Shown here one piece after another: positions 28,152 to 63,999 of a stretch of 64,000 bases of DNA. The notes under the pieces were generated by a model. The model was not told the origin of the DNA. It saw only the letters and a list, made by a program, of their open reading frames with translations, and did no database searches. Source of the DNA: Rhizaria sp. SCN 62-66. Its lineage: Eukaryota. How positions within the stretch are numbered: position 1 is the stretch's first letter; the number at the start of each line of letters is the position of its first letter. The stretch lies in contig MEDY01000054.1 of assembly GCA_001724265.1 (NCBI GenBank), positions 62,001-126,000 on the forward strand, written 5' to 3'. The translations under genes and the position numbers were made by a program.

Positions 28152-28890
28152 CTAAGTCTGGCGTGAATGCGAAGGGGAATGGAAGGAAAGGGAGGTGAGA
28201 GGAAGTCATGAATCTGAACATGCGTTTTGAGAAGTAAGATATATATTGAGCGTAGTGTGGCAAATTGAGTCAATATAATATAGCACGTTACAGCGAACTC
28301 AACGTGTGTTGGGTGATGTTGTGATCTCATTGCCTCTGTATATCACTTTGATTTGCGGCGCACGTCGGAGACAAGATGCGATTTTTCGTTTGTGGTGGAA
28401 ACGAGATTTCCACCGCAACGAGATTTTGCATTTCTGGTCAGGTGCGACTTGTCGTATTTGTGGTGATTGGTTGATAAACTAAAGTGTATTCAGGTGAATT
28501 AGAGGGGGGTCACAGAGCAGGGATATGTTTCAAAACAGCAAATCAGTGTCGTCATATCTCACGTTGAGAAGACGGAACTTGATACTCTGCTCAAATCACG
28601 AGCAGCGAAGAAGCTATTGTAGTCACGTTAATCAAACACAAAATCCAAACGACTTGCGTGCGGCCAGAAAAAGAACACGATTAATGCTCTGTCAGAAGTA
28701 GTGTTGACAGAGGGCTTTCAAAGTAAGATGGTAGTAATCATATCATATGCAGTTTGTTGGCTGGTGTGTCACACCCTTTCTGAATGACAAACACGAGGAT
28801 TGAGCAATAATAAAGATAAGCAACAGAAAAAATAATATCTTAACACGAAATAATCGTCTAATAGGAAGTGTTTTTCACTGAACTATGGTG

Positions 28891-31800
28891 TCACATGTTG
28901 TTGTTGATGTAATTGTTTGGTAAAGCGAAGACATCACGTTTCTTCTTCGCCTTGGACTCTGACGCCATAGACTCGGACTCCGTCGCCGCGGCAGTCGCCA
29001 CGGGCAGAGACGAGAAGGTCTTGGGCCCCGCCGCACCCGCCGCCACCGTGGGCGCAGCAGGCGCCGGCGACGGGGTGGGTGCTGGCGTCGACGCGGGCGA
29101 CGCCGCGGGCGCGAGGATCTGGGTGAGACCGGCTAGAGACGCAGTCCCCACCTTGTCAGCGCCGGAGACGAGGGGCGAGCTTGCGCCCGCGCTCGCGCTC
29201 TGCCTGCGCTGGCTCGCCTCCGCCTCAGCCGCCCGCTGCTGGTTCGCCAGGATCGCCCCTGTCCGCGCGCGCAGCCCGTCGTATAGTGCCTTGAGCGCTG
29301 CGGCCACGCCTACAGGCCCGGCGCGACGCGCGGGGTCGAAATTCAGCAGGAAGTCGAGCGTCTCGATGAGCCGCTTGCTGTGGCCCGCAAACTCGCACGC
29401 CTGCGGAGGCAGGTAGTCGCGTTCGTTGACGCGCTTACCGCTCGCCAGGCTCTGTGCGACAATCATCACGGTGAAGAAGTTGGACAGGTCGTAGAGCGGG
29501 CGGCCCAGCCACAGCTCGGCCGCGGCGAGCGTGAGCGACCAGGAGTCGCTTGACTGCGTGATGAGGTTCAGACGGCGCCGGTCGTATCTGTTCTGGTGCG
29601 GGTCCGTGGTCTGCGACAGCAGCAGCTGCTCGGGCGACTGGTAGATCTCCGTGCCGCGCGCCACGCGCGTTGCCACCAGCAGCGGCAGCGACTGCTGCGT
29701 TGCGATGCCCGCGCCCGCGCCCGCGCCCGCCGCCGCCGCCGCGTCGGTCGCGCCGGAGAGCCGCGGGTGGTGCCATGTGGCCACCAGCGCGGCGGCACGC
29801 AGACTGGCCGGCGGCAGGATCACCGCGGTGCCGAAGTCGCCCAGTGCAACGCGCGGCGGCCCCTGCTCGCGCGGGCAGGCGGCGCTGGCGGCGGCCGCCT
29901 CCGCCAACGCGATGGCCTCCGTGGCCGCGACGGCGACGTCGCCGGCGCCGTGCACGTTGGCGCGCACGGGGACGCGGACAGGGACGACCCAGTCAGACTG
30001 CAGCAGCGTGCGCGCCTTGCTCTGAATCAGGATGTTGTGCAGCTTGATGTCGAAGTGCGCGACGCCCAACGCGTGCATGCGCGCGCTCGCGTACGCCGCG
30101 CGCGCCGCGAGGGCCAGGACAGCCTTGCGGTGCTCCAAGCAAAGCACGGTGCCGCGGAAAAGGTCTTGCGCAACCGCCGCTGGAGAAGGCCGCTCATCGT
30201 TGCAAACAGTGCATCGGAGGGCGCCGTCGAAATCATCTTCGATCAACGCGGTGCTCATCGCGGTGGCCTGCTTCGTGGTCATCGCCGGCCCTGCCGACGA
30301 CAGCGGGCTGGCGGCCGAGAAGACCCCCGCCGCGCTGCTCACCACCGAGGCTGTCGGCGACGCGCCGGGCAGGGATGTGGTGACGGCGGTGACGGTGGCG
30401 GCGGCGGCGGCGGCCACGCGGCGGTCTTCGCTGCGCTGAGAGGAGACCTTCAGGCTCTTGCGCCACGAGTTGGCGTCTGAGTCGAAAAGCTCCATGATGA
30501 TGGCAACGGCGCCGAAGACGTTCACGTCGTCGGGCTCGGCCGTGTCGCGCCCGCTCGCCACGGAGCCATCGTCGCGGCTGCGGCCGTAGAGGTCGCGGCT
30601 GTGCGCCGTCTCGGCCTGCGCGTCGCGCCCGTACCCCGTGCCCGCATCGGAGCTGGTGCGGAGCGACTGCGCGGGCGCAGAGGCGTCGTCAGCAAACTCG
30701 CTGGAAGTGGCGCGTGGCGCTAGAGCCTTGATGGAGCGCACGAAGCCGAAGTCGATGATCTGACCAACACCTTCGCCCGCGCGCGCGAGGCGCTGCATCG
30801 CGGTGATTTCGTTGAAGATGTTGGGCAGCGTGTTGTACTCCCACGTGCCCTTGGGCACTTCGAGCAGCTTCACGGCGACCCTGCGCGTCGTGTAGGGCCG
30901 CAGCGGGCAGCGGCGGTGGCACGGCACGACGCACGACGCCGAGACCTCGCGCGCGGTGAGGTCCTTGGCGGCGCGGGGACAGAAGTGCGCGTGCTTGGCG
31001 TAGTTCGCCCACCGCGGCATCGCGGGCGTGTACGTGGCCGAGATTACCTTGCCGAACTGACCGCGGCCGAGCATGCGGTCGATGCGGACCGAGCCGTGCA
31101 CCATGTCGACCTCGGCCCACGCGCCGGCGGCGGCAGAGAGCTATGCGGGCGGTGGCGGCAGCAGCAGCGGGAGAAGCGCCGGGTTTGGGGTCAGCGTCGG
31201 CGCCGCAGCAAACGAGAAACCGAAGCCAGACGCGCCTGCGAACCCCGAGGCCGGAACACTGGAACTGAGGCCCCACTGCGCGCCCCCGCCGCGGACGGGC
31301 ACAGACGGGTTGAACGCGCCAGCGGGCCGCGAGTCCGTGCCATCAAATGAGACCGGGATCGCGCCGGCGATGTCGACCAGCGGCTGCGGCGACTGGAACG
31401 TAAGCGCGGCGTGCGCCGCAGTGACAGCGCCGTAGAGCGGGCTGTGCGACGGCGACTGGAACAGACTGGGCAGCTCCGGCCCCGTGCCCGGCGTGCGCGA
31501 GGGCGAGATGAGCGGGGTCGAACCCTGCGGCCCCGTGCCCGGCGTGCGCGAGGGCGAGATGAGCGGGGTCGAACCCTGCAGCGGCAGCGGCACGGGCCCG
31601 TCCAACTCCTGGTGGTCGAGCAGACGCGACACGCGCGCCGCGCCTGCGCCTGCAGGCAGCGGGGCGCGCACCATCGCCGCGCCGGCCGCCGCGTTCGCCG
31701 ACACGAATCTCAGAGTTTGCGTCGGGGTTGGGATCATCGCCGCGGTGCTGCCCAGCGCAGTGTTCTGGCCGAACATCAGCGGGGATGGCGGCGGCGGCGG

Positions 31801-34800
31801 GAGAACCGCGTCGCGGGCAAGGTTGGGGAAGCACAGCGGCCAGGCAAACGGCGTGATGAGACGCAGAAAGCGCAGCGCGGGGACGACTGGCGTGCTCGCG
31901 GCCAGGTGGTGACGCGGGATGTCCGTCTCGTGTGCGCGCACTGAGTTGAGCAAGCACGGAAGCATCCTCTGCAGGTCGTCAGGATCAGACTTCGTGCCGT
32001 CCTCACCGTCTTTGCGAGCGTCCGAGCCTTTCGGCTCAGATGTCAAACTGCGGCACGCACGGGCGCGAGCGCGCTCGACGTCGGCCCACAGCGCATCGAG
32101 CGCCTGCTCCTGTCGCGCGGTGTCCTTGGCGACTGCGGCATTGTCCTTGAGCTCCAAGTGGCCGACGAGGTGGACGAGCATGGACCGGCCGACGAGCTGC
32201 AGCGAGGCCGCAACAATGCCGCAAGACATGCCGACTTCGGCGCGCCACGGCTCCACCACGGGCGCAGGCGCCATCGCGCGCGACATCGCCATCGCCAACG
32301 CCATGCCCGCGCGGGACTGCGCGCTCTGCACCGCGCGGGACGCCGCTATAGTCGTTGGGGCATCGTTGTGGCCGTTGCCGTTGCCGCTGCCGTTGCCGGA
32401 GCCATTGCCAGAGACGCGTGCGATGGTGTATCGGTTGAAGCCAGTGTGGCGAAGACCACCGCAGCGCGCGAAAGCGGCGTCGACGATGCTGTCGATGTTG
32501 GCGCGAATGTTTGTCACGTCGTTCTCGCCTGACGCGGCCGCGGCGTCGGTCTCAGCGGCGCCCGACACGCTCGCGAAGTGCGACTTATGCAGGCGCATCG
32601 CGGTCACCGTCGCAGACATCAGCGCTGTATGCGCAGTGGAGCCTTCGTTACCGGCGGCGCGCGCGGCAGCTGACATCGCGGGGACAGACAGAGAGGCGGC
32701 GCGCACAATGTCATCGAATGCATCGGCAACGTCGCCAACGAGGTACTCGTTAGCGAGCTCCTGTGCGCGCACAGTGAAGTCGCTCAGCGGACCCAGTTCC
32801 ATCACCGGTGGCTTGTACAGATCCAGCTTGGCGGCGTCGCGGGGAGAGCGCTTTGCCGCGCCGCTCGAGCCCTTCGGCTTGCGCCGCTTGTCACCGCTAA
32901 CGCTCTCGTCATCCTCGCCGTCGTCGCGCTTGCTGTCCCCGTCCATGCGCTCGTTGAACGGGTCATTGTTGTGCCCGTTGTCATCTCTGCGGTCTCCGCC
33001 GGCCTCCGCGTCGCGCATCTTGGAGATGATCATCGGGTTGAGCCCCACACCACTAGGCGACACGCACAGGCGCAGCAGCAGCCGCATAGCGGCCGTATGC
33101 GCGGCCGTCGACAGCGCAAGCGGCATCGTGAGTTGCGTCGCGTGCACCACGCGCTCGAGTGCACGCGCTTGCCGGTTCGACGTCTCCTGCGTCAGACTCT
33201 GCACCGACTGAGAGCCGGCGCCGCCGAACGCGGGCGGCGAGGCGAGCGCAGAAGTCGGCGACAGCGCGCTGGCCGCCGGCGCCGCGGCGGCGGCGGGGGA
33301 GAGCAACGCCACGCGCAGCGTCTCAGAGCGCTCGCTCATGTGACCCGCGCCGTCGATGAAGATACTCGGCGTCACGTCGTTATTTTGCACCTTAGCACCA
33401 GCCGCGCCAGACGCCGCGGCAGCGGCAGCGGCAGCAGCAGCAGCAGCAGCGGCAGCAGCAGCAGCAGCAGACGCTGCGGGCGCGGCTGAAGAAGAGCCGG
33501 CGTCGACAGAGGCCCCGGGCGAAGGCGATAGCGACAGATCCTGCGGCCACTGCGGCGCCGAGACCGCGCGCGTGACTAAGGGCGGGATCGACAGCGCGTG
33601 GGGCTCGGGGTACGAGCTGCTGACCGAGTCGAGCGCCGCGTCCGAGTCTTCCGCGGTGCCGTCGCTGGCCTGCTGGTACCCATGCGCGCGCGCGGTGCCC
33701 GTCGGCTGTCTCCCGTGCAGCGGCGACGGTGGGTGGACGACGACGGTCGCACTTCTTGTCATATTCTGACCACCGGTCCCTTTGGGCTGATTGGGCTGAC
33801 GCGCCAGGGCGTTAGCGCTAGCGGCCAAGACGCCTGCGCCCTCGCCCGCGGCGTTGAACAGTGCCAGCGGCGGAAGGTTGTTTGGCGAGCGCGAGTCCGG
33901 GCCGGAGCCCGCCACCGCGGCTTCGGGGCTGGCCGCTGTGGGCGACGTGCTTACGGGCGGCTGCACGCGCAGTGTGCTCGGCCGCATCGCCGTCGCGCTT
34001 GCGCTCGCACTCGTCGAGCTCGAACTAGAGCCAGAGCTGGAGCTGGAGCTCGCGCTTGAGGCTGGCACCAGCGCGAATGACTCTGCCGAGCGCGCCGTGT
34101 CGGTCGTGGTGGACCCGTGCGTACCGGGCGCGAGGCCGCGCGCGGGCGCAGGTGCGGGCGGCGCGGCGGCCTGCCAGGCGTTGCTGACGGGGTGCACGTG
34201 CAGAAACATTCCGCACGCGTCCACGACTGGACCGATAGCTGGCGCGGCGATCGGCGGCGACGGCGACCGGGGCGAGTCGAATCCACACTCCCAGAGGTCG
34301 ACAAGGTCGTCGGCAGCGGCGGCAGCAGCAGCGGCGGCAGCTGAAGCCGCGGCGTCTGCAGCGGCACTCGCGGCGGCCGCAGTCAGGGCCGCCGTCTCCA
34401 TCGCCGCCGTCGCGTTGGCCGCGGACACGCGCGCGGGCAGCATGCTAACGGGGCCGGTCTCGTGAAACGCGTGGGGCGACTTCATCACGGGCAGGGCCCA
34501 GTCGTCGATGAGCGCGGCCACGCCCGCCGCGAAGGGCTCCTCGGCGGCCTCGGCCAGCACCTCCGAGTAGGCCAGGTCTTGCGCGCACTGCGATGACGCC
34601 GCGCTCGCGCCCGCAGATGGGTCCAGCCAGCCCAGCGGCAGGCGCAGCAGCGGCTGGGCGGCGATCGCGGCGCCCGCGGCGCCCAACCACGGAGCGCGCG
34701 CGTCCGTGATGCTGTGCGGCGGCTCCAAGGAGTCGTGCGAGTCGCGCATGCGCCGCAGGTTCTGCTGGAACAGCGCCGCGCGCGCTGCGCGCACCGCAGC

Positions 34801-37800
34801 CGGGCTCGCGTTCGCGCCCGGGCCAGCGGCGCTCATGCTGGCAGCGGTGCTAAGGCCGGCGGATTGCCCCGGCGACTGCGCGGCGGTGGGCGAGACGGCT
34901 CCGGCTGTGGCGGCGGCCGAGGTGGAGACCGGGACGGCAAGCCCGGCAGCGGCAGTGCTGCTGGGGATCGCCACGTTCTCCGTCGCCTGCATGGCCGCCA
35001 GCGCCGCGGCCGCGGGCGTCACAGTCACGAACAAGGGGGCAGCGGGCAGTCCGGCGCTGACGGACGCGATCATGGCGCCGCCGCGGGCCGCGGGCGAGGC
35101 TGGCGCGATGCGCGCGCCGCCCGCCGCCGTCGCCGCCGTAGAGGACGGCGAGGGCTGACGCACGGGCGGCAGCAGCGAGGCGCTGGTGACCGCGAGCGTG
35201 CCGGACAGCACCGCGCTGCGCGAGCGCTGCGACTGGCGCAGGCCCGGGGCGCCCGCCGCGCCCTGTTGGGCGGCGGCCGCAACGCGCAGGGCGGGGACTG
35301 AAGCGGTGGAGGCGGCGGCGGAGACGGGGCGCGTCGGGTGCTGCTGCAGCGCAATCGCACCCGCGGCGGCGAGCGTCGAGTGCGTCCCCGACATAGGGCC
35401 CGATGAGGGGCGCGGCGGCCGGTCGGGGGACGCGAAGGGCTCGGGAACACGCGAATGCGACGATGCCGGCGGCGGTGGCGGCGGCGGAAGCGGTGTGCGA
35501 CGGGGCGTGTCAGAGTCGGACGGCGGTGCAGCAGCAATGCGAACAGGCGAACTGTCACGTGAGCCGTCATCGTCCGAAGCGTCCGAACAGTTTGCGTTCA
35601 TAAAAGCCGCGCACGATGACGCCACACTAGACTGGGGACTACTGGCGCGCACAGGCGCTGCGGTGACAAACGCAGAGACACTCTGATCAACTGCTGTAGA
35701 CATCGAGCGCAAGTGAGTGCGCGCGTGCGCCCGGCAACGGGTGCGCATCGGCGGAGAGCGTGGCACGGGCGGCGCAGGCAAGGGCGGCGAGTGACTGCGC
35801 CCTTTGTCCGGCAGACTGGCGGGTCGCGGGCTATCGCGGCGCGAGTCAGAGCCCTGCCAACTACTGTCATAGAAATAACCGGGGACAAGGCCTCCGTATT
35901 GTTCGTCGACCCAGTCCATGGAATCAAGCCCGTCGTCAGAGTTGGAGCGCGCCTCGTACTCCTCAAGCCGGGAGTTCCAATACGCCCGTTCTTCGCCGCC
36001 ATCGTCATACTCGTTGCCGAAGCGAATCGGCATCTCAGGTAGTGGATTCGCCGCGGGGTTTTCCACAAAGCGTTCAAACGCGGCGTCGTCTGGCAGCCAT
36101 ATGTATCGATTCTCAACCATGCGCTCGATAATTGCCTCCTCCGTGATACCTGGGTTCTCCACCGCAAGAGCTGATCGGAACTTCGTAAGAAGTTTGTCGG
36201 CCACAGCACGGACAACAGGGCCCGCCAGCGGCACGCCGCCCATAGTCTGTCGCAGGCTGCTGAGCTGGATAATGAGCTGGAAGCGCATCGCCGCAACATC
36301 AGGCACGTAGGCGCTGCTCATCACACTGGGATCCAGTGACGAGTCGCCCCAGCCGTCGATCAGCAAGTTGTCGTCCTCGGGGTTGTCAGACGCGCAGACG
36401 GAGACGGACCTCACGCTGTTGCTCTGGCTCAGCAGACTCGCAGTGCCGCTGCGGAACGTCGGGCGAGGACTCTTGATGCCCTTGCCGAGTACAAGCTTGC
36501 TGAGAGTCCCGCTTGTCAGCTGAGATGTGGCGGGCGAGTTACGCTTGAGCGCATTCTGGTTGCGCCGCGCCGAAGCCTGAGGCGTGGCGTCGCCGGCACT
36601 TTGGACGCCAGCTGCGGGGGCGCCACTGGAGGTTGCTGCTGGCGGGCTGCTTTCGGCCTGGGTCGGCGTCGGAGCGCTAGAGCTGCCGGACGTGATGCCA
36701 CCGCCGGTGAACGGGCCGAACGACGCGTTCGGCGTGGCACCGACAAGCATGACCTTGTCTTTTGCTTCCTCCTCGTCCTCCGCGCCGTCGTCGTCGCCGT
36801 GGCTGGTGTGGCCCTGCGTCGGCGGCGGCTGCTGCGCGTCAGCTTCGCCAGTGTCAGTAGAGCCCTGAGTCGTTTTGGCATAGTTGGCAGGCAACGACGC
36901 CGAGCTAGACAGCGCTGTGCGTGTTAGCTTTGCTGTGGGCTCTGTAGACGGTGCCTCGGCCGGCGGCACAGCAGAAACCGCCTTGTCAGCGGGAACGTTA
37001 TCCGCCGTAGGGGTGTCGCTCACAGCCATGGAGTCTTCGGTGATGCTTGCGTTGGCGCCCACAACGTCGCCGTCGTCTTCCGACCACATTCCTGACGACA
37101 CATCGCTCGCTGCGGCAGCAGCATCAGCAGCCTCCGCAGCGGGAGCAACGGGTCTGTCATCGTCGGGCTGCACCACAGCCGTGGCTCCGACCATGGGCGG
37201 GGATACGTCGGTTGGCGCGCCTGTGGTGGCGTCAGACGGCGTGTCGCGGGCGGGCTCAGTGCTAAGAAGCCCGCTCTGCTGCAGCATCGCGAGCGCGTGG
37301 GAGCCGCTGACGCCCGAGCTCAACGCCGCCGAGGGCAGCGGCGAGCCCCGGCCCTCGGCAGCGGCAGCGACCGTAGCCGCGCTGGTGGCGGCCGCGCTCA
37401 AGGTCTGCATCGCGCGCGGGGCGATGATGGAGCTCACCGTCGAGGTCGGCGACGTCGGCACGACGCGGTGGCTGGTGAACCCGCTTGAGGACGTCGAGAG
37501 CACGATGTTGAGGTGCTCGCGCGAGTCGCTGAACCGCGTGCGCGCGCTGTTACTGCCACTCTCCGCGCTGGCGCCGAGGCCGAGCGCGCCGCCCTGGAGC
37601 ACGAACGACGGGCCGCGGCTGCGCAGACCGGTGCCGGCCTTGGGGCTGCCGCGCGCGCTCAGCGGCGCCGCCGTGGGCGCGTGCAAGGGACTGAAGGTCG
37701 CGCTGAACGTCGGTGTCGTGACAGTGGAAGACGTATTAGTGGTGGTCATCGAGACAGACGCGCCGACGGGGGTGGGCCCGCTCATGCTGCTGTTGAGCGG

Positions 37801-38410
37801 GTTGTTCGGAAGCCCGCCAGCAGCGTTGCCAGAGAGGGACAAAGACTGCGAGTTGTTGGTGTTGTTGTTGCTGCCGCTGCTGTTGTTCGGGAACACGTGG
37901 TGCAGTGCGTATGCTCCGCCAAAGCCGTGCGCGCTGGACGGCGGCGAGGCGTGCGGACTCGTGAGCGCGGGCGCCTGTAGCGTCGACGTTCCTATCGTCG
38001 GCGACGCCGTGTTGGAGCCGGGACGGCTCGAAATCGGGTGGCCGACGCGGAACGAGTGGGGCGGCGAGCGGTGGCGCAACTTCATCACCGGGGACGAGTT
38101 CTGCGACGACTCGCCGCCCGTGGAGTCGGGGCCCGACCAGGGCGCGGACTTGATCTGCTCCTGGCCCTCGGCGATCGTACTCAGGTCGTTCGAGTTGTGG
38201 CCCGACGTCTGCTGCCACTGGGCCAAAGGGGAGCCCGTATCGACGACGTCGCCGTCTTCGCCGGGGACGTGGTGGCTCACGGTCGCGTACGGCAGGCGGG
38301 ACGACGACAAGGACGAACCGTTCAGGCCAGGCTGCACACGGACAAGCTCCGGCGTATCTTCGTCGGCGACGGCGTTGTCGGCTTCGTTGTTGACAAGATC
38401 ATCATGTCCA

Positions 38411-38441
<31 letters not shown>

Positions 38442-41400
38442 CGTCGATGTTGTCATCGTCGTCGTCAAAGTCTTCGTCAAACATCGAACCGTCGTCATCG
38501 TCGTCTAAGTTCTGATCATCGTCGGGATCCAAGAGCCTGGACGCGAGTGCCTGAGCAGCCGCATCCTGTGCCGCCGACACCGCCTGCGGCCGCGCGGGCG
38601 AGTGGAAGAACCCTAGAGCCACGGCTGGTGACACCGCGACCGGGGAGTCCTTCTGCGTCGACTCGTCGGCCAACGGGTTGCGCTGGCGGTCCGTGCTGTG
38701 ACCCGTGCCGCCTGACGTCATCGAAGACAGCAGCTGCGGCGTGCCGCGGCCGGAGCCCGTGGCGGCACCCCCCAAGTCGTCGCTGAAGCCCGACATGGCC
38801 GAGTACATCGGGCTCACGGTGGGGCCGACGGCGAAGCGCCCGCTGTTGCTGCCGCCCGCGGTGTGCGGCGGCGCGGCCATGGGCGGCAACAACTCGTTCG
38901 AGCCGCCCTGACCGGCGTCGCGGCGCTCGTTGAGGACGAGCCCGGGCATCGCCGCATCCGCGCCGGCGCGGCCGCTGGGGCCGACGCCAGGGGAAGAGAT
39001 GCGCGATGTCGAGGACTCGGGGCGCATGCTGGTGCGGCTCGTCGACTGTCCGCCGCGGCGCGACCAGTCGCCGCCGTACTGGTCGCCGCCGCCAGTCACC
39101 GGGTCGTCGAGCCCGCGCGGGGACATACCGGGCATGAGCGAGATGAACCGCGGCGAGATGAACCGCGGCGGGTTGGCGAGGCTGCCGGGGGTGTACGTCC
39201 CCCCACCAGCTGCGGACGGCATGATGCCCATGTACGGCGCTGGGCTCACACCGCGCGAGCCCGGGAAGGCCTTGGTGGAGCGCGCAGTGCTGATAGTGGA
39301 CATGGTGGACAGCGGTTGGTTGCTCAGTCCGCTGCCGCCCGCAGTGGCGTGCATCGGAGACTCTCTGCTGGACACCTGCGAGCCGGTGCCGCCTGCCGCG
39401 GCCGCGACGCCGGTCAGCGCGAGGTGCAGCGGCGACTGATTGACGCCGTAAAAGCCCAGGTTGGTGTGCGTAGACGCCGGCGACGGCGACGGTGTGGTGT
39501 GCGCGCGCGCGCTGAGCAGCCACGACACGCCCTTGCCCGCGGCCGCGCCCGAGGACGGCGACTGCAGACCGGGGGTCGCGGTAGACCGGCGGCTGAAGTT
39601 GTGCAGGAACATGCGCGCAGCAGGGGACGCCGGCAGCGCGCGCGCGGCGCTCGTCATAGCCGCCGTGGGGCCGCCAGCGGCGCCGCCGGTGCCGCCGGGC
39701 GTGTTCGTGTACATCGACATCGGCATCCCGGGCGAGGCGTTGGGGCCGGAGCCGCCTGCGTTCATTGCGGCCATCGACGGGCTCATCGACCCTGGGCCAC
39801 CGCCGCCGCGCGCGCTCGTGCTGGCGTTGACTGTGATGACAGAGCGGCGCCTCGTACCCGGCGTGTTGAGGCGCGGCGGCGACAGCAAGGCGTTGTTGCT
39901 GGGATGATATGGCGACGCTGAGCGGCCGTTGCGGCTCGACGGCGGCGACACGGGGTGCGAGGCGTGCATGTCCTGAGTCAGCGAGGGCTTGCTGTCGCCG
40001 TCTTCGTGCTGCACAACCAACTCCAGCGAGGGCGGCGGCAGTGACAGCGAGATCGCGTGCGACGCCATAATTTTGTAATCGATGAGATTGTTGCTGTCCC
40101 GAGTGTTGCTCTTGGCGGACGCCGGTCTAGGTTCAGAAGAGGACTGCGACGCGTCGATGTCGCCCACGCAGAGATTCTCCAGCGAGGGCAGCTTCTCGCG
40201 CGCCTGCGCACCCCCGGTGCTGTCCGCAAGCAACTTGGGCATCTGATAGGGAGTCGCTCGGGGAATAGGCGACACGCGAAGACTCGGGGCCGTGGTCGTG
40301 TCAGCATTGATGTGAATGTTCGTGTTGTTGACCGAGTCAAACACGCTACCGTTGTTTCTCTCGGCAACATTGCCTGACTGACCACTGGCGCCAGGCACGC
40401 TCTCGCCGCTCGTCCGGCGACCCACGCGCGCAGTCGTGTTCCCGCTGTGCTGCTGGCTCCCCGCCGGGCTGCCCGGGAACGCCGCCGTCGCCGCCGCGGT
40501 GGTGTTGACCGTGTTGACGTAGGCAGCGACCGAGACCTGCATCGCATGCATGTACGCCTGCACCAGATCTGCGTCCGGCACGCCCGCGGGGCCCTGCGAC
40601 ACCGCGGCGACCAGGTCAACCGTGGCGCCTGCGCGCTGCATGGCGGCGAGGATCGCGATGTCCTTGACGGCGCATGCCAGCCGCAGCGCGCTCGCGCCGC
40701 CGGGGCGGTCCACCGCCGCGACATCTGCGCGGTCGACGATGAGGCGCTCCACGGTGTCGGCGTTGCGCAGCAGCACGGCCATGTGCAGCAGCGGCAGCAT
40801 TTGCGGCATGCGCACCGCGGGCGGCGCCGACGGCGTCATGACCGGCAACGTGGGCGCGGTGTTGACCATCGCACTCGCGCTCGGCGCGGCAGGGGACATG
40901 CGGGGTCCGCTGTACAGCGGCGGCTGCGCGTGCATCGACAGCGGGCTCGGCAGCGCGAAAGGCATGGCGCTGCCGCCCACAGGCGACTGCGCGGCCGTGC
41001 CCGCCGCGGTGGCCGGCAGCGAAAAGGCGAGCCCCAGCGCGGGCGAGTGCGCGTGGATGTGCGGGTGCGAGAGCGAGTGCTGGTCGGTCGACATCTCCGA
41101 GTCCGGCATCGTGCGCGACGCAGACGCCAGATCCGACGTCGAGTTGCCGACGGAGCCCGGCACCGCGAGCGTCCCCATGGCGGGGACGAGGCCGCCGGCG
41201 GTGAAACCGGTCGGGGACGCGCCGCCGATGACGTGGGCAGAGCCACCCGGTTGCAGCATCAGTGGCGGCGACGCGCGCATAGTGAACACCGGGTGCGACT
41301 GCGGCGGCGAAGCAGTGGCCGCGCTGCTGCTGCCACTGCCACTGGCGCTGCCGCTGTTGCTGTTGATGCTGCGGATGCTGCTGCTGTTGCTTGCGTTGAC

Positions 41401-44400
41401 CATGTGCATCAACGCGTGCACCGGCAGCCACACGGCGCCAGGCGCGGGCAGCGGGGACACAGCGCCTGAGCTTCCGCTGCTGCCAGTCGAGTTGTTCTGC
41501 TGCTGTTGCTGTTGCTGATGATGAAGTTGTTGCTGCTGTTGCTGGTGATGCTGAAGCATTGCTGCGGTGTGTAACGGCGAGCTAAAGTGATTGTGGTGTT
41601 GCAGCAAAGTCGCCATCGTCGCCGGCGTCAGTGGCGCATACCCCGGCAACGCCATCGGGCTCTGCATCGGCGGTGGCGAACCCCCGGGCGAGCCGCCGGG
41701 AGAGGCGATCTGCAGCAGGTGGTGCTGCGTCGGCGCCGAGTGCGGGTGAGTCATGTTGTCGCGTGGCGCGCCGCTTGGTGCGGGACCGCCGGCCGCAGGG
41801 CCGCCCTCGCGCGGGGTCGGCGAGGCCGTCTGCGCGGCCGTCGTCGCAGCGGACATCGCGGCGGGTACCGCGGGCATCGTCGCAAGATTATGGTAGGGCC
41901 CCAGCGGCGACGGCAGGAACATGGAGCTCACCAAGTTCGGCGCGCCCGGATTGGGAGGGTTCGCGGGCGACGGCATCTGCGCCGCGCCGCTGGCCGAGGC
42001 AAGCGTCGCCGTTGTCGTGGACTGCGTGGGCGTGAGCGGAACGCCAGCGCGCCGCAGGAGCCCGCTGAGCGGCGGGCGCACGGGGGAGCCGGCGCCGAGC
42101 GGGGGCGTGGTCATCGACGACATCGACAACGACAGCGACGAAGAGGACTGCGTGGGTGAAAAGGGCGAGACGGGCCCGCCCATTGTCGGTGAGAAAGCGT
42201 TCGCCGGGACTACAGCGCCTGTGGTGAGTTGCGAGACCATCGGTGCGACTGTGGCCGAGCCCGCAACGGCGCTCGAGGGCAGCGCCACACGGCGCGTCAT
42301 CGGCGCGTCCGACGCACTTTTGTTGTTGTTGCTGTTGTTGTTGTTGTTGTTGCTAATGCTGGGCATGTGGATGCGCGACGTCCCCACGGCCGGCGCGCCG
42401 CCGGGTGCGGTGTTGATAAACGGCGCGGCGGCCGAGACGGGCAGCGGAGGCACCGTGGGCGCGGCGGTGGTGCTCGTGAGCGATGAGCCGCGCGAGACCT
42501 GCGGACGCGGCGTCGACGCATCGCTGAATGGGGCGGGCATAGCGGCCGTGGGCGAGTGCACGGTGCTCGAGCTGTAGTCTGTCACGGAGAGCGTCGAAGA
42601 CTGTGTACTGTCCTCCTGGGTCGACAGCGACACGTGCTGGGGCGAACGGGCCGGTGATGCACGCGAGTCCCTGCCGGGGACTCCGGAAACGACGCCTGAG
42701 CCAGCCGATGCAGACCGGGGATCCAGGCCAGACGCCGCGCTTGCCATGCGCCCGTTGGAACGCATCGGCATCGGCGAAGGAGTGGGTCCGACGCCGACAG
42801 ACGTCACCAGACTCAGCGGGTCGCCGGATTCGACTCTGACGATACCCGTGGGGGCCTCCAGTGTTGAGACGACTGGGTGCGGTGCCGGGTGAGCGCTAAG
42901 CCCGGTATCGGCACAGTCTTCCGTGTTTGCCTCTGTATCCGCCGCAGACACGTACGCGCCGGGGCGCGTCTGGGAGTTCATCAAGGGCACTGCAAGCGTC
43001 TTGGTCTGGACATTGCCGACGCTCTTGGTGGCGGTGATCACGTCCCCGGGCGAGCCGGAGCTGTCGGACCGCACAGCGTGGACGCCAATGTTGCGCATCG
43101 TGGTGGCCGTAGTGGGCGGCGTCGCAACAGCGGACGAGTGGCCAGCCGTGTTGGCCGACGATGATGTGCCGGACACGTTTGTACGTGCACTGCTCATCCC
43201 AGCATTAGCCGCGTTCTTACCCGAAGGCGCTTGCGTTGATGCATTGCCAATGACTATGTTTGAGCGAGTGGCTTCTTGGCCACCCGTCCCCTTCGCGTAC
43301 GCGACCATCGGCGCGTTTCTTGGGCTCGGTGAGTTGAACACAGAGTTGCTGTCGCTTGGCACGACAATAGCCAACAGCTGTGTGTTTGCGTGCGCGGGTG
43401 CGGACCTGGGTGCACGGGCATTGGTCTCGGCAGCCTCAGTCACGACAGCATCATTCTGCATCAACACAGCAAGCGATGGAGTCATTGACTCTGTGGGGGA
43501 CTCGACCGGTGGGATCACGATGTTGGCCATATTGAGCGGCCGCGTATGCCTCGCTTGCTGCTGCTGCTGGCCGTACAGCTGTTGTGAAGCTGATGGTGGG
43601 CGCGGGTTCGACGGCGAGTCTGAGTGCGTGCGCTGCGTGTGCGAGCGCTGGGCTGACGACGTGGTCGACATCGCGCTGTTCAGCTGGTCGTGCACAGCGA
43701 CATCGCCCGCCGTCTGCGCCGGCGACGTCAGCGCCGGCGACAGCGCCAGGTCGTGCCGCGTGTCGGCCAGCGTCGCCAGCGCGAAGTGGCGCGACGCGGC
43801 GGGCGCGATCTCGGCCGCGTGGGGGTCCGTGTCGTCGGGTGACGAGCCACGCCGCAACAGCATCGTGTCGTGCGGGTCCCGCCGCCTGTGGTATGAGCCC
43901 AGACTGCTCTCTTCGGTGCGCGACCGCGCGTGCCCGGGGGTAGGATCCTCGTTGGGCGTGTCTGGTGGCGCCACTGCCACTGAAGGGGTCTCCGCGTCGG
44001 CATTTGGCGGCACGCCGGGCTCTGCGTCGGGGAACTCGCGGTCACGCGAGCAGCGCCGCCCGTAGCGGTCCCGCGGCAACGCTCTCTGAGCGCCCTCGCG
44101 GGGGTTGTACGAGAACCCGTGGCGTGCAGCGGCATCGACCGCGTGGCGGTCCTCTGACTCCGGGTCTGATTCGAGGCCGGCGCGCACGTACAGGTTGTCT
44201 GACGCGGTGCCGACAGCGTTTTCGTCGTTCAATCTGAGTGACGCTGACTGCAGGTTAGACCCGAGCGGCGCCGCAAGAGTCACCGACGTCGCGACGGACG
44301 CTGATGCGGACAGCATTGGTGATGCCATCTTATCCGCTCGAGCAGCCTCCGCCGCAGCCGCGCGCGCGCTCTCCGCGGTCGGGATGTGCTTGAGGCGCCC

Positions 44401-47400
44401 CGGAGCGAAGCGCGGCGACGTGTTGGCACTGGCTCCGGGTGAGCCTGTGGACGCTGAGGCCGACGCTGTGGCGGACGCAGAGGCGGACGCAGAGGCGGAC
44501 GCTGTGGCGGAGACTGTGGCGGACGCTGAAGTTGAGCCGGCCACCGCTGTCGCGACTGCAGCAACGCGCTTGGGATGCGATGGGCTGCCGGGGGACGTCA
44601 TAATCCTATTGATCACACCCAAACTCTGCTCCGGATGGGACTGTTGGGACGGCCCAACCTGCGACCGGCTCGGCGGAGGACGCGCAGAGCTGGCCGGGCC
44701 CATGGGCGGCGACTGGAGCGGCAAGAGCAGGCGCTTGTTGAAACCGTCGTTCGGTGAAGCAGCGAAATTGTTCTCCCCATCGTCGCAATCAGCAAGCATG
44801 CGGATCGCCTGAGGCAGCGACTGTGACGCGTCCCTTTCACTTTCCACCTTGCGCATCACGGAGTTAAGCGGAAAGTTCTCGGCATCTCTCGGGTTCTCCT
44901 TTGTTATTGACGCCACAGTCATGCTGGAGCGCATAGCGTTGCGATCCAGCAGCATGCGGGCACTGACGGGGTCGCGGCTCTTATCGCCAGCCTCCGCAGC
45001 GCCGCCCTTAGCCACGCGCGCACTGTCGTCATCGGCCTCCGCGACGCTGTTGAGCACCGCGTGCGCCATCATCGGCGGCGTCTGCGCCGACGTTCCTCGG
45101 CTTGTGTCGGACGTGTCGTCCGCGGGGCCCGCGCGCCAGCTGCTCGGCGCAGACAGCAGCGGGCCCTGGCCGAGCGCAGAGTCAGAGCTGCCGGACGCGC
45201 CGGCGCTGCCGCTGGCGCCCGTGCCAGAGCCAGAGCCAGAGCCCGCGACAGCGCTGACGGATGGCGCGAGCGCGGGGCCGCTGACGGCGACGTTTGTGCT
45301 CGCGCCGCTGTCGATGCTAATCGCGCTGATGGTGCTGGCCAGCCGCTGGTTCGCGGGCGGAGATCCCGACGGTAAGCTCGAGTTCATGACCGAGCGCGGG
45401 AGCCCGCCGCTGGCGGTGAGCAGAATGCTGCCGTCTTGCGGGATGGCAGATCCGCGTCCGACGAATGACACAACGCGTGACGTTGTGGGGATCGTTGGCG
45501 ACATCTCCATGGACGGCGTCGACGTGTGCAGGCTCACTGGCGACGTGTTCGGTCCGTGAGTTGACGTCATATGTCCACTCAGCGGCCTCTTAGCGTCTGC
45601 CGCATTGGCCATGGGCTGCGGCACTGGTGCCGGGCGCGTCGTGGCTGGAGCAGGCGCAGCAGCGGCGCTCGTGGGCAGGGCGTTTGGCGTGAACTGGTCG
45701 CGAGCAGAAGATGGAAGGCCTTGGCTGGTCCGCGCATGCTGATGCAAGTGCTGCGCAACGACCGTCGGCAGCGGTGACGGCACCGCGGGATCTGCGTTTG
45801 CGGCCACAATAAGCATGTTCATTGACAGCGTTGGCGACTGCGCACGCCCAGACATGCCACTCAGAGCAGACATGCCGTTGAGCGAGGGCGCAAAGCCGCC
45901 GGCCTCGGTGGGGCTGCCGAGCCCGGTCTCGTTCGAGTCGGGCGCGACGTCGATGCCACTCGCTGTCGCGTGGTACAGTCCGAGCTTGCCGCCGGGGGCG
46001 TGCAGGTGATGATGCAGATACGAGCTGCGCGGCTGCCGCGACGCGTGGCCCGGCGCCAGGACACGCGCGTCGGTCAGCGGCGTCGAGTTGCTGCTCTTGG
46101 GGTCCGCCGCAGACCGATCTGCCGCGGACGGGTCCGCCGCGGACGAGCTTGACGAAGACTGTGCGAGACTACCGCGGGCGGTTTGCGCAACCAGCACGAC
46201 GCTGACGGGGGCCGTAGGCGACGGCACGTCGATCGTGAGGTTCGACAGCTTAGACTGCGACAACTGCACAGGAGACGGGTCTGATGACAGAGATCCGGAG
46301 CTGCCGCCGGTGGTGCTGGTGCTGACGCTGCTGTTGACGCTGCTGCGCGCCCCCGTGCCTGCCGCGAGGACGAGCTGGCCGCGCGTGGCGGCGACGGGTG
46401 TGAGGTGCACGATCACAGGAGAGGGCCGGAAGCCAATAGCGGGAGAGTCAGAAAATGTGGCAAGTTGCGCGCCGCCCGAGCCCGTGGACACTGTGCGCGC
46501 GAGCCCGTTGGAGGACACGGGCGTGCCCGCGGCCGGGGCGTTGGACGGCGAGAGCGGGGGCGAGCCGGACGACAGCTGCTTTGGCAGCGGCGGCCGCTCG
46601 CCGGGGGCCATGCTCACGCTCGTGGCGCGGCTGCGGGGGCCCGCGGTCGGCGACGTGTCGTCCGGCGTCGACCGTGGTTTGCGCCGACTGTCGTTGGGCG
46701 CCACTGATGGCTGCGGACCTTGCGCCGTCGCCCACCACGTCTGCGATGCGCTCAAACGCTTCGCTCCACCGGCACCAACGCCGGCGCCAGCGCCAGACGC
46801 TGAAGTTGGTGAGAGGCGAGAGGGCGCCCCGCCACGCCCAAAGCCGAGCTGCTGCCCCTGCTGCTGTTGCTGCTGATTCGAGGGAGACACTGGAGCTGCA
46901 AGCCCCGGTGGCAGCGGCAACGGGTCGAGCAGGGCTCCGATTGCGGGCGAGTCGTGCGAGCCCAGGAAAACGCTGACGGGCTCGCCTGTGCGGAGCATAG
47001 TGCTGTCATGAGACAGCCGCTTCGCGTTGCCGCCCGACCCGTCCTCGGACGGGGACGTCAACAACAGCGGATCGATAGGCGCTTGCCAGTGCGAGTCGCC
47101 CGTGCTCTGCGGGGCGGCAACCTTGACAGAGTCCCTGCCTGGGAACACGTCATCGTTATCAGAGTCGCCAACCTCGTTCTGCTGGTGCAGAAGCAGTGGC
47201 ACGGAGCCGCTCGCACTGCGGAAGTCGCCACTGCTGTGACGGCGGTGCGTGGGCCTCTGTCCGCTCGCCGTCGTCGGGGGCCCAGGTGCGACATCGCTCG
47301 GATCGTCACGCTCAGATGACGCAGAGTGTTGAGCGGCCGCGGAGCCATTGAGCGATAAGCCCGAGACCAGCGATGCAAGCGCTGCTGCCTGAGCCGTCGC

Positions 47401-50400
47401 TCTCGGACTGGGCGGTGCGAACGCGCTGACGGGACGGCCAATAGCAGTGTGTTGCATCGCGCTCTTGGTACCCACAGCGCTTGCAGCGGTGCCCAGTAAG
47501 ACCACGTTCATGCTCGCGTCCGACACAGCGGTGCTGGAGCGGTGCGGGCCCTTGTGCTTGAGGTGCGCGAGCCCTGGCGCGACGTTCGCGAGCGCGCCCG
47601 TGGTGTCCGCGCCGTGGGCCTGCGGGACCGAGGGCTGCATGGAGGGTGAGCCGGCGCTCTTGTTGGTGCTCGTGCTGTTGCTGTGGTTGCGCGGCGGCGC
47701 CACGCTGCCCTCCAGGGCCGAGAACGTCGTCTCGAAGTCCGACGGCGCGAACTGTGGCGACGGCAGCAGCGTGAGGTCGCGCGTCGCGTCCCACTCGCTG
47801 TGGTCGCGCTCGCCATCGCCCGGCGCGCCCGGCGTGCTGCGGCTGCCCTGTGAGCCCTGGCGGCTGCCCTGCGAGTCCTGTTGGCTGCCCGTGGTCGCGT
47901 CGTGCGCCGGGGAGCGGCTGTGCAGGCGCGCGGGGCGCGGCACGTCGGTCGGGGACAGCGTTTGTTGCGACGAAGGGGACAACGGCTGCATCCCCGCGGC
48001 AGCCATCGCGGTCGCCGTCATCGTCACGTCCGGCGCCGGCGCGTGCGGCAGGTTGAAGGCCCCGGTGGGCGGGCCGCGCGACGTTTGCGGAGGTACGCGC
48101 ACAAAGAGGCTCTCGATCCGAGGCGAGGTCGCACGCATGTTACTCGCCATCACCGCGGACGCGGGGGGCAACGGGGCGACTGTTGCAGCGGTCGGGTTGA
48201 CTTGGAAAGCCAGCTGGTGTTGTAATTGTTGTTGCAGCGCTTGGGAGACAAGATCTGACAAGATCGACGCCGTAGACGAGTTATTGGCAGTCTGCGGCGT
48301 GCCGAGCTGCGACTGCGAACGCTGTTGCACGACGCGGGCAGCAGACGCGTCTTGCGGGCTCGACGCGACGCTGCTGCTGGCAACGCTCGCGGTGCCAGGC
48401 GTCCGCACGGGCGGCGAGCCGCGTTGGCGCACCGCGTTATGCGGTGAATTCGGTTCCAAACGACGGCGCTCCATCATAGCAGCGATGCGTGGAGCGTTCT
48501 GGGCGTCGACAAACGTGACGCTGCCTGCGGACCGCTGGCGGTTGTGTCTTCCGCGACCTGAGCCGATGCTCTGCGACGGGCGGCTCGCCTGCTGCAGCCC
48601 GAGCGCGAGGGCCGGTGTGCCTGGAGCAGGCGACTCGGAGAAGTTGCTGCTGCGGCGGCCCAGGAGCCGCACCATCGTACTGAGGTCGGGCGTGGTAGTC
48701 TGCACGCTGTTGCGCAACGCGGGAGCCGTGGGCGGTGCCGGGGGTGCATTCCCTTCCACTCCAAGGCCGGTCGGCGCAGACACACGGGAGTCCTGGTCTG
48801 GAACGGGCGGGGCGGACGGTGTGCTAGCGCCCGCAGGCTGAGACTGCGGCTGCGGCACTGGGGCGGCGGACTTGGCGGCGGTCTTGGCCTGCTCGCTGTC
48901 TTCCGGCAGCCACGCCATGGTAGCCTCCGAGTCTGGCGCGATAAAGGCCAGCACGCCGTGCGAGATGCGCAGCTGGTGCAAGCGCCAGAGCGCCACCGAC
49001 GCACCCTCGCTGAGCAGCCGCGCCCACACGGCCTCGGTCGCCAGCGCGACGACGCTGAGAGCGGGGCGCGCGGCCGTCGCGGCTGCGGCCACGGACGCGG
49101 CGGCCGCGGCGGCGAAGGGGCTGGCGTGCGGCGCAAGTGGGGACGCCGCCTTGGCCGCCGCGGCCGCCGCGGAGACCTGCGGACTTGGAGAGAGCGCGGG
49201 GTGCACCGCGAGGTGGCTGTGCGAGTCGACGGCGATGGCGAGCGCGAGGATGACCGAGAGGTGCGTCTTCAGTTCGTCCGCAGAAGCCGTGGCCTCGCAC
49301 AGAACGCACCCGCGGAAGGGCTTGTATGGCCCGCTGTGGAGGGCGTCCTGCGTCGCGGTCGGCAAGCGGCTGTGCACGGGATTGGAGCACAACAGCGCGA
49401 CGCCCGGCGGCACACGGGCCAGCGCACGTGTCGAAATGGCGTGCAGCTGCGTCACGTGGGCCCACGCCGCGTCGGCCATGATTGCCACAGCGCGCGCGCT
49501 CAGCAGCACGGCGGAGCAGGCGCCCACCGTCGCGGTGATGGGCTCGTTTTCGCCGTCAGAATCGTCATCGCTGCTGCTGTCGTTGAAGTCGTCCCATGCG
49601 AGCTTGTCCAGTCTCGAGTTGTGTTCGTGCATCGGGCTCGGCGCATCCTTCATCTCGTCGGCAGCGACGTTACGATCGCGATAAGAGGAGGAGAAATCCG
49701 TCCTTGTGGATCTCTGCGGAGCCGCAGCTGTTGTGTTGTAGGAGCGCGACACAGCGCGGGGCTCCATGGCGGCCAGATGCACACGCAGGAGCTCTGCGAG
49801 GGCGCCAGCGCTTACCATAACGGGGGCCCACGCGCCGTCGTGCGATCGGCTCGCGGCCACGGCGGCAGCGGTCATGTCTGGCTGATTCGTGTTGTCGTCG
49901 TCCTCCGCAGCCGGGCCGGCAGTGGGCAATGCGCCGCGCGGCAACACATCGCCCGTGGCCGCGGGCACGGACTTGGAGCCCTCCGCGGACCACGTCGGCG
50001 ACTCGCGGTGCGCCTGAGGGCGAGAGTCGGCCGCCGTGGGGAGCTTGCGCGGGTGCACGTGTGCGCGCGCGAGGCGCTGGGACCACAGGGGAATCTCAAG
50101 GCGCGCAATCTCCGCGTAGGCCGCAGCCAGTGTCTCGACGGCGCCACTGCCCGCGAGCAGGCGATGCCACGCGCCAGGCGAACTGGTTGCGAGCTGGGGC
50201 GGTGACGCCTCCAGCGCCGCGGCCGCGGCGGCAACGGCAGCAATGGCGTCCGCAGGCGTAACTGGCACACCAGCGCACGCGGCCTTGGCGTCGCAGCCGC
50301 AGGCGAAAGCGCAGGTCGCGCACGCCTGCGACGCCGCGGCCGCGGTGGCACCGGTCGCGACCGCCGGGTGCGGGCCCACGGCGTCGGCGTCGCCGGTCGC

Positions 50401-53400: not shown

Positions 53401-54016
53401 TACGAGCGACGACGGGCCGGATGATGAGGTCGTCGCCGCAGTGGGGTTGACGGCCGCCCGCGACTGCGCCTGCACCGGCGCCTGGGAAAACCTGTCGTCC
53501 GCCTGTGCAGCGTGTGGCGCCGGGTTGACAGGCCCGATGTCGGGCAGCACGGACGCGATCGCAGTGAACGCCGCGCGGTGGTGCAGCGGCAGCCGCGTCT
53601 TCCCTTTCTGGTGAACGTAGACGCGCGCACGCTCCTGCGCGGCGAGGTGACGTTTCCACACTGTCGAGAGCGTCGACACCAGCGCGACGGACTTGAGCCT
53701 GTTCATCGGCATGTACGTGTGGTCTTTGGCGTCCTCTCCGCGTGAAGACACGATCTCGTCCATGGAGTACGCACCCATGTGCGCGTACGTCGACGCCGCA
53801 TGCGCCGCCACGGCGCCCGCCGCGCGCTCGACCGACGCGCGCGACTCGGCCGGCTGGCGTCGCACGTTGATCACCCGGCGCAACGTCGCGTCCATGCTCG
53901 CCAGGCCCGCCGGCGCCGGCAGCCGCGCGGCAGAACCTCCCATAGAAGGTTTCGTATCCGCTACATGGGCCTTGACGGCGGGCATGCGCTTGTGGCGGCG
54001 GCGCTTGTTCCTGCTC

Positions 54017-54054
<38 letters not shown>

Positions 54055-56975: not shown

Positions 56976-57014
<39 letters not shown>

Positions 57015-60000: not shown

Positions 60001-61211
60001 TTCCTCGGCCGACACCGTGCACTGCAGCGGGGCCGAGGTGAAGAGCACGTCGGCGAGCGCGGCGATGAAGGGCTCGAAGTGCTCCTGCGTCAACCACGGC
60101 AGCAGCCGCTGCGCCGACGCCCGCATCAGCGCGCCCATCGCGCGCGGACACGTGGGATCGTCGCGCAGCCACTCGAGCTCGTCGTCGAGCGCGATGCCCG
60201 CGGCAGACTCCGTTGCGGCGGCCTCGGCCGCTGTGCGAGCGGCGGCCGCTGCGGCGGTGGCGGCGGCAGCCTGCTGCGCGGGGGGCTTACCCGCCACGCG
60301 CGCGGCGGCGCCCGCGGCGATAGCGGCGGCGGTGGGCGTCCGTGTGGCGGGCAGCGCGGGCAGCGCGGCGCGGAGGAAGGCCCGCAGGTCGCTGTAGCGG
60401 CGGTGCGCGGGGCTCTGCAGCATGAGGATGCGGGAGCGCGCGACGGTGTTGACGCCAGGGGCCGTGGTGAGCCCCGCAGCGCCAAGCACGACGGCTGAGG
60501 GTGAGTAGAAGACGAGCGCGGCCGCGGCGAGGTGGCCATAGCAAGCCATCGACGCCAGCGACGCCGCCGCCAGCGCGGTCCGCGGGGGCAGCGTCGCCCA
60601 CGGTGCGGCCGCCGCGAAGCCCAGCCAGCCCGCCAGCGTCGGCGGCGCGCCGGGGGGCGACAGCGGCGCGGGGGCCGCCACGGAGGCCAGCGCGGTGGCC
60701 GCGGCCGCGGGCGCGGGCGTCGTCGGCAGCAGCGGCGCAGGGAACGAGTGCGCGAAGGCCGTCGAGAGCTCGTGCTGCGGCGTCAGGAAGCGCGTCGTGG
60801 GCAGCGGCGGCTTGGAGACAGCCAGCGCGCTCTTGGCCACGCTGGCAAGGGCCGCGGCGGGCGCGTCGGGCAAATACGGGTTGTAGCGCGGCAGGGCGAA
60901 GAGCGAGCCCTCAACGACTTGTGAAAACAGGTCGGGCGCGCGCGGCGCCACCAGCTGCGGCAGCGGCGCGTGGGCCTTGTTGTGTGAAGACGCTGACGCG
61001 GCGGACGCGTGTGTTGCCGAAGCGTGCGTTGCCGAAGCGTGTGCTGCGGAAGCGAGCGCAGCGGCGGCCGCGGCGGGCGCGGGCGGCAGCGTGTGTGCCG
61101 GATCGTCCGTGGCCATCGCCAGCAGCATCGTGAGCAGAGTGCCAGCGTCCATGACGCGGCCCGCGTACACGACGGCGAGCCGCCGCCCGCGCGCCACGGT
61201 GCCCGTCGCTG

Positions 61212-61250
<39 letters not shown>

Positions 61251-63999: not shown

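Follow-up and report, generated by a model that had tools for sequence, protein, structure and literature searches.

The window analysed here, a 64,000-nucleotide stretch of the Rhizaria sp. SCN 62-66 genome (positions 62,001-126,000 of G000:C54, in an assembly of 34.9 Mb and 714 contigs), carries on its minus strand a giant single-exon coding frame that ends in a protein kinase domain and is crossed by a lone in-frame TAG shortly before that domain. Our analyses make it very probable that UAG is decoded as sense in this genome. The best explanation overall, to which we assign a probability of roughly 0.6, is that a Glu-type tRNA with a CUA anticodon decodes UAG and that the giant frame thus specifies one chain of 11,728 aa. 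Such a tRNA, derived from tRNA-Glu, would translate in-frame UAGs, which are rare, most probably into glutamate, and the ribosome would pass the TAG at 31,141. The predicted full-length product would consist, in order, of an Ala/Leu-rich N-terminal part, a low-complexity linker of 5,000 aa, a pre-kinase block and a C-terminal Ser/Thr-type kinase, its length arising from low-complexity insertions that inflate many proteins of this genome.

The strongest argument for decoding comes from the termination machinery itself. Searching the genome for the eRF1 domain returned three matches, one eRF1 gene and two that read as pelota exons, and the only eRF1 gene contains an in-frame TAG (Table 1); because this essential single-copy gene would otherwise be inexpressible, UAG is very probably decoded. 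In-frame UAGs that lie within conserved domains and leave no space for an intron were found not only in eRF1 but also in a CaMK-like, a NEK-like and the L090 kinase. In the part of the genome sampled, TAG behaves unlike the other two stops. A survey of 612 kb took in 139 non-overlapping frames, each 250 codons or longer; their gene-end-like stops were TAA in 33 cases, TGA in 33 and TAG in 2, both TAG frames reading as entering introns. This stricter survey replaced a first gene-end scan that was swamped by antisense frames; it flagged six TAGs as followed by noncoding sequence, and inspection by eye assigns these to introns, to frames that continue or to an antisense frame. The frame stays open for at least 100 codons beyond TAG in 13 of 21 cases and, when only coding-like tails are counted, in 10/14 for TAG compared with 1/39 for TGA and 0/33 for TAA. 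In-frame TAG is rare, with 13-15 occurrences in 169,668 codons (~1 in 12,000). A lone TAG occurs in 9 of 142 kinase matches (five exonic, four splice acceptors) and a lone TAA in one (L095); in other families, single TAGs in DEAD (1/43) and kinesin (1/54) matches are both intron acceptors, and none occurs among 20 ABC or 149 WD40 matches. A code in which UAG alone has changed meaning is probable, given a tRNA gene in hand and a UAG within eRF1.

The TAG in the giant frame is not a local error, because a contig of run X3, from a different study, spans it without a single difference (29,753-31,254) and a contig of run X6, a polyA library, crosses it ungapped (30,947-31,399). The runs that contain this DNA are bioreactor and wastewater metagenomes, and their contigs were compared over 24,400-33,500, which takes in the last 4.6 kb of the giant gene; misassembly, named in an initial annotation of the window as a finding that would refute its reading, was checked by contigs over that interval only. 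In three intergenic bins X6 depth is zero and X5 depth 5.5-6.1.

A gene for the expected adaptor is present. A pattern search for CUA tRNAs gave 28 matches at 26 places, all of which were scanned, and one proved to be a tRNA; it is flanked by GC-rich coding frames that resemble the rest of the genome. Compared with 28 other anticodon types of the genome (a set that excludes tRNA-Glu(TTC)), it is nearest to tRNA-Glu(CTC), matching it at 47/73 positions as against 39 for Asp, 36 for Gln(CTG) and 32 for Gln(TTG), and it has the first five acceptor pairs and the T stem in common with tRNA-Glu(CTC). The tRNA-Glu(CTC) and tRNA-Asp sequences were obtained from Rfam matches, a pattern search for tRNA-Glu having returned no match. 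The minimum-energy fold of the CUA tRNA is not a clean cloverleaf (z -1.5), a measure that is uninformative for tRNAs. An earlier consensus pattern for CUA tRNAs had given four matches, fewer than its control and none of them a tRNA.

As to the amino acid inserted, Pfam bit scores summed over five sites rank E first (384.3), followed by Q (382.8), K (382.0), D (380.2), S (378.4), Y (373.7), L (371.9) and W (369.5), so that leucine, tryptophan (through A-to-I editing) and tyrosine, 10-15 bits under Glu, were rejected. Column 107 of eRF1 holds E in 108 of 117 homologues, D in 8, V in 1 and Q in none, and the site in the L090 kinase is D in all three paralogues. The contexts of 27 exonic TAGs, hand-picked from the candidates after exclusion of acceptors, doubtful frames and contig C681, lie between those of true Glu and true Gln codons and deviate from pure Gln contexts towards Glu (P 0.006). 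Under glutamate decoding, mixed contexts would be expected if CAG-to-TAG transitions are the source of many TAGs, whereas glutamine decoding should give nearly pure Gln contexts; transitions make up 96/132 changes in strain X5. A scan of 26 segments, 24 of them around TAGs, added no new informative column, and the site in MetRS sits at the end of a conserved block. The tRNA body and eRF1 favour glutamate, somewhat more probably than not, as the residue encoded by UAG; two kinase sites favour glutamine.

Several observations weigh against this explanation. With respect to the tRNA, the resemblance to tRNA-Glu is only 64% and the discriminator is G, where tRNA-Glu has A. With respect to full reassignment, eRF1 retains E55, S70 and Y125, a T32S change left human eRF1 largely unaffected in the part of the study drawn on here (PMC3632111), and TAG is very rare. 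With respect to the giant gene, the X6 contig that crosses the TAG comes from another strain (31 differences/453 nt), it bears on continuity across the TAG and not on the letter there, and the library may contain DNA. With respect to the residue, the nearest eRF1 (P0004, 84%) has V at position 107, and the TAG contexts reject pure Glu as well (P 0.0006). The remaining points also speak for the best-surviving alternative, in which the gene and the readthrough are the same and UAG means glutamine, a meaning it also has in Iotanema and in certain phyllopharyngean ciliates, either through capture of the Glu-derived tRNA(CUA) by glutaminyl-tRNA synthetase or through a Gln-type tRNA(CUA) missing from the assembly. 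E exceeds Q by just 1.5 Pfam bits; the CaMK-like site is Q in the nearest orthologue (81% identical), within a column of Q16, K14 and E3 of 49; the NEK-like site is Q in NEK1, the best PDB match; two TAGs on C681 pair with CAG in paralogues, though that stretch looks virus-like; and some TAGs lie within Q/H-rich runs. Glutamine is, moreover, the commonest outcome of UAR reassignment in the portion of PMC11687900 consulted. Against glutamine stand the Glu-like body of the sole CUA tRNA found, with a search pattern that would have caught a Gln(CTG)-derived one, the absence of Q from eRF1 column 107, the D of the L090 paralogues and the rejection of pure Gln contexts; C-to-T transitions, the prevalent class in X5, would turn CAG into TAG under either code. 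We regard glutamine as possible but unlikely.

The eRF1 protein itself differs from its homologues at several positions. T32S, G57S and L124M occur in 0/117 homologues and T58K in 1/117, the nearest relative only; besides the retained residues named above, L69 and the YxCxxxF motif are kept. T32 closes the pocket for the third stop base (PMC4605324, in the section available), and Iotanema eRF1 is altered at this same position (PMC5304391, in part). This eRF1 may still partly read UAG as a stop, and such partial recognition would explain why UAG is rare in both roles. The two further loci found in a metagenome scan for the eRF1 of relatives are L174, which looks identical to this genome and is not independent, and L175, an AT-rich eRF1-like sequence on another metagenome contig, which has K at 58 but also TGA and TAA in its frame, comes from an unrelated organism or is a pseudogene, and was not used.

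An extended and rather doubtful version combines UAG as glutamate, at an intermediate stage with UAA and UGA as stops, with eRF1 feedback and a kinase-ratio switch. Here, one tRNA-Glu(CUA) would compete with an eRF1 that partly recognises UAG, keeping the codon rare as sense and as stop; the UAG in the eRF1 N domain would exert negative feedback on termination strength, and the UAG before the kinase would determine how much kinase-less 1.1-MDa scaffold is made relative to full-length enzyme. At the measured rate, ~0.035 UAGs would be expected inside the eRF1 N domain by chance, a coincidence noticed post hoc. Release-factor autoregulation has a bacterial counterpart in the prfB message, which has an in-frame stop. 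In the plant eRF1-1 circuit of readthrough and nonsense-mediated decay, the release-factor message likewise bears a termination-sensitive signal (PMC5397192, as far as the excerpt goes). Unlike in these two systems, the signal here would be an in-frame UAG in the eRF1 N domain, and the feedback is hypothetical.

Two further alternatives concern the TAG of the giant frame. It could be the acceptor of a GC-rich, in-phase intron of 156 nt whose donor-like GTCCGC lies at 31,296; the kinase would still join the giant exon in frame, and the code change would then be carried by the other sites alone. This idea is consistent with a donor-like hexamer in phase 0, with a CTGAC that precedes the TAG and with the divergence of the candidate stretch between strains, and several other TAG matches in the genome did prove to be true splice acceptors. 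Yet the stretch is 72% GC and 20% T, against 37-52% GC and 30-40% T in five introns of conserved genes, the hexamer occurs 4.7 times/kb across the gene anyway, and the X6 contig crosses the stretch unspliced, which together leave the intron improbable. In the strain comparison, divergence reaches 6-7% at 31,157-31,479, just upstream of the TAG, and is ~2% elsewhere, intergenic DNA included. Least probable is the standard code, with TAG a true stop (a nonsense allele, pseudogene or assembly error) and either a 10,978-aa product without kinase or a kinase that is a separate gene: the rarity of TAG and the database entries that list a kinase of 719-737 aa as its own protein (P0241, P0258) speak for it, but the sole eRF1 gene would be inexpressible, the same TAGs are present in another study's run, no AT-rich spacer or promoter room precedes the kinase, a block shared by the kinase family sits upstream of the TAG, and a tRNA gene with a CUA anticodon exists.

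Table 1. Positions of the features discussed (window coordinates unless a locus is named; SP/TP, dipeptides)
Feature	Position	Strand	Basis or remark
Giant single-exon coding frame	28,891-63,999	minus	from ATG 64,077 (outside window) to TGA 28,891-28,893
Lone in-frame TAG, 25 codons upstream of kinase glycine loop	31,141-31,143	minus	translation and contigs of other runs
In-frame TAG in only eRF1 gene	L105:1594-1596, G000:C63	minus	ungapped alignment to human E107, no intron room
tRNA gene, CUA anticodon	L050:1489-1561, G000:C84	minus	T-run after it, Glu-like body, G discriminator
Protein kinase domain, interrupted by insertions	29,260-31,090	minus	Pfam Pkinase E 1.5e-9, ESM Atlas, family HMM (hidden Markov model)
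Possible pre-kinase block B3	31,837-31,878	minus	joint top score 16.0 vs reversed control 18.0; not significant alone
Pre-kinase block B1	33,049-33,111	minus	giant aa 10,323, ~650 codons upstream of TAG
Linker, ~5,200 aa, Ser/Pro/Gly/Thr/Gln/Asn-rich	33,180-48,900	minus	SP/TP densest, 3.2 per 100 aa
Acidic (Asp-rich) tract	38,365-38,523	minus	read from translation
Weak ankyrin-like island	40,708-40,788	minus	Pfam Ank E 0.026, 15.3 bits vs cut-off 21.1
Poly-Q/H tract	41,497-41,553	minus	read from translation
Ala/Leu-rich mosaic, ~5,000 aa	48,900-63,999	minus	without Pfam or NCBIfam match
Second window TAG, in insertion splitting AMP-binding domain	24,948-24,950	minus	X3 contig 24,903-25,419 identical

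The giant frame was described in the initial annotation as a single, apparently intronless frame of 11,703 codons, open at the window edge. One minus-strand frame of that length is indeed present. It is not free of stops, the translation of 28,891-63,999 having one at codon 10,953 (the TAG, which had been overlooked) and the other at codon 11,703 (TGA), and the one-chain interpretation needs that TAG to be decoded, a point that had likewise gone unseen. Under the standard code, the frame falls into pieces of 10,952 and 749 codons, with the kinase entirely downstream of the TAG. Extension beyond the window, which had been proposed as a check, located the start ATG 26 codons past its edge, after an AT-rich spacer behind an intron-containing gene, giving 11,728 codons and a mass of 1.185 MDa with the TAG decoded, in line with the predicted >1 MDa. 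The frame is coding, because its third codon positions have a GC fraction of 0.82 and stops number 125-339 in every one of the five other frames; its AT-rich flanks are 44% and 41% GC. As regards the lack of introns, composition agrees, since T content reaches at most 29% in any 90-nt window (against the 30-40% of the five known introns), and RNA-library contigs agree over the last 4.6 kb only.

Much of the earlier description of the protein held on measurement. It is rich in Ala (19.4%), Ser (11.9%), Pro (9.5%) and Gly (7.2%), self-BLAST finds no internal repeat at E<1e-6, SP and TP dipeptides exceed expectation (184 vs 132 and 93 vs 75), and the poly-Q/poly-H stretch and the acidic tract are where they had been placed. 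Scans of the 10,952 aa upstream of the TAG against Pfam and NCBIfam returned zero matches, and the repeated folded domains of modular giants (titin, polyketide synthases and nonribosomal peptide synthetases, adhesins) were not found by Pfam, NCBIfam or self-BLAST, as had been anticipated. The ankyrin-like island did not reach the Pfam cut-off. The suggestion that the protein is mostly disordered fits its middle best, with FoldIndex <0 over 27% of aa 5,061-10,300, and less so the first 5,060 aa, with 14%; FoldIndex treats Ala as ordered, so that disorder is under-called.

The terminal kinase is a genuine member of its superfamily by its motifs: glycine loop (GRGQFG), VAVK lysine, alphaC Glu, catalytic Asp/Asn within HFDIKLHN, DFG and RGTEIYQSPE are all found, the catalytic loop being of the non-RD (HFD) type. 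Because all catalytic motifs are present, the protein is likely an active Ser/Thr-type kinase tethered by a long SP/TP-rich stretch; that this linker acts as a phospho-regulated scaffold we infer with low confidence. Of the 1.84 billion representatives searched, 11 matched, one of them being the giant's own kinase, and the relatives have in common the HFD catalytic loop and the RGT..SPE..YDRR motifs. In the family represented by P0250, P0257, P0244 and P0249, a helical N-terminal part is followed by a pre-kinase block, the HFD kinase and a C-terminal DSPc-like domain, and the giant has the kinase signature motifs and block B1 in the same order. B1 scores 33.4, the top of all positions in the giant (next 20.9; reversed-control maximum 10.0), its region aligns pairwise with P0244 at E 1e-4, and it shares one chain with the kinase in the homologues; block B2 was not found in the giant protein. 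Mapping of the helical N-terminal part of the homologues onto the giant by HMM and BLAST gave no significant match, ARM-like leads from the Atlas being all that was seen there. The DSPc-like domain that terminates P0250 has no Pfam match in the giant's tail; as P0254 and P0243 lack a match to it as well, the domain may not be diagnostic of the family.

The earlier idea that insertions have inflated a kinase gene of normal size is supported. The longest relative, P0257, has 2,198 aa, compared with 11,728 in the giant. Between B1 and the glycine loop, four homologues have 85-86 aa, P0243 has 399 and the giant 674; between the glycine loop and the catalytic loop, homologues have 118-123 and the giant 337. 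From this spacing expansion and the homologue lengths, the giant is, by sequence comparison, a member of a kinase family of ~2,200 aa that has been inflated about five-fold by insertions. Contrary to the earlier claim, its length is not exceptional for this genome: frames of 8,416, 7,932 and 5,662 codons lie within 502 kb, and stop-free frames of 10,115 codons (WD40; G000:C34 ~14,200-16,400, minus) and 7,102 codons (kinase; G000:C53 ~73,500) occur elsewhere. Since giant frames are common across the genome, size is the lesser finding, and an 11,728-aa single-exon kinase is a curiosity of moderate interest amid genome-wide protein inflation; a literature search on giant low-complexity protist kinases found nothing relevant.

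Further in-frame TAGs were seen elsewhere. In the window, an acyl-CoA-synthetase-like gene (22,312-26,207, minus) carries a low-complexity insertion of several hundred residues that splits its AMP-binding domain (profile 1-126 and 129-308) and contains the second TAG of Table 1. Another TAG at 16,865-16,867 (minus) follows an EF-hand-like segment recognised by eye, and the sequence remains coding-like for 39 more codons. The 8,416-codon frame (G000:C54 ~127,950-153,190, plus; L009-L012) is very Ala-rich, has one internal TAG (2,782 + 5,633 codons) and is separated by ~2 kb from the kinase gene's start, being oriented away from that gene. Three in-frame TAGs lie in an AT-richer, virus-like island (G000:C681:1-5,400; L179, L150, L157) with a weak match like major capsid V20 and a fusion of a repeat protein with a ubiquitin-like domain and an S74 chaperone; a related gene is found where C9 begins. 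Several more are found in an AT-richer, expanded kinase family (L089, L090, L091, L057), whose members may be decaying or may be heavier users of TAG. Searches of viral and prokaryotic collections found nothing.

With respect to lineage, the best named match for one kinase is Plasmodiophora brassicae (58%), which suggests rhizarian affinity on the basis of one gene; the eRF1 matches are uninformative in this regard. An insertion between polyubiquitin monomers is a marker of Rhizaria, and no polyubiquitin junction occurs among the ubiquitin genes seen, which are monomeric genes and L40 fusions only. The ubiquitins (L148, L149, L151, L152) are divergent, the standalone copies being monomeric, with MS before MQIF and a short HPQ/HSQ tail.

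To our knowledge, UAA and UAG are nearly always reassigned as a pair, and codes that reassign UAG alone are few. The closest parallels are the rhizarian exLh (UAG=Leu) and Iotanema spirale (UAG=Gln), in which, as here, UAG is a nuclear sense codon and UAA and UGA are stops (Panek et al. 2017, PMC5304391, here and below as partly available). There, a CUA tRNA was predicted, whereas here a CUA tRNA gene, Glu-like, was actually found; I. spirale eRF1 has T32G where the present one has T32S and keeps L69; leucine, the exLh meaning, lies 12 Pfam bits under Glu here; and UAG amounts to ~0.25% of Glu codons here compared with ~8% of Gln codons in I. spirale (PMC5304391). Phyllopharyngean ciliates (UAG=Leu or Gln) also reassign UAG and keep UAA as a stop, but use UAG widely, whereas it is rare here; the UAG-only codes reported in the consulted portion of PMC11687900 are Leu, Gln and Ser (Scotinosphaera), with Glu not among them. 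For the mechanism, precedents exist in Oligohymenophorea sp. PL0344 (UAG=Glu, UAA=Lys), where tRNA-Glu-derived CUA tRNAs decode UAG, and in Blastocrithidia (UAR=Glu), with a CUA tRNA of the same derivation; according to the passages used, both also reassign UAA, which remains a stop here (PMC10553269, PMC12153298). PL0344 has ten CUA tRNA genes, 69-93% like tRNA-Glu, compared with one, at 64%, here (PMC10553269, in part). No code in which UAG=Glu is combined with retention of UAA and UGA as stops turned up in the literature searched, supplements being outside its scope, so that an earlier report is possible; nor did a report of UAG=Gln in Rhizaria.

If true, UAG as glutamate with UAA kept as a stop would constitute a new code table. 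The genome supplies together a tRNA gene, an eRF1 gene and a very rare codon, which earlier cases lacked. The rarity of UAG may show a reassignment under way, and thus bears on the question of codon capture versus an ambiguous intermediate. In practical terms, standard gene callers truncate the proteins of this organism, and the giant kinase stands in databases as no more than its C-terminal fragment.

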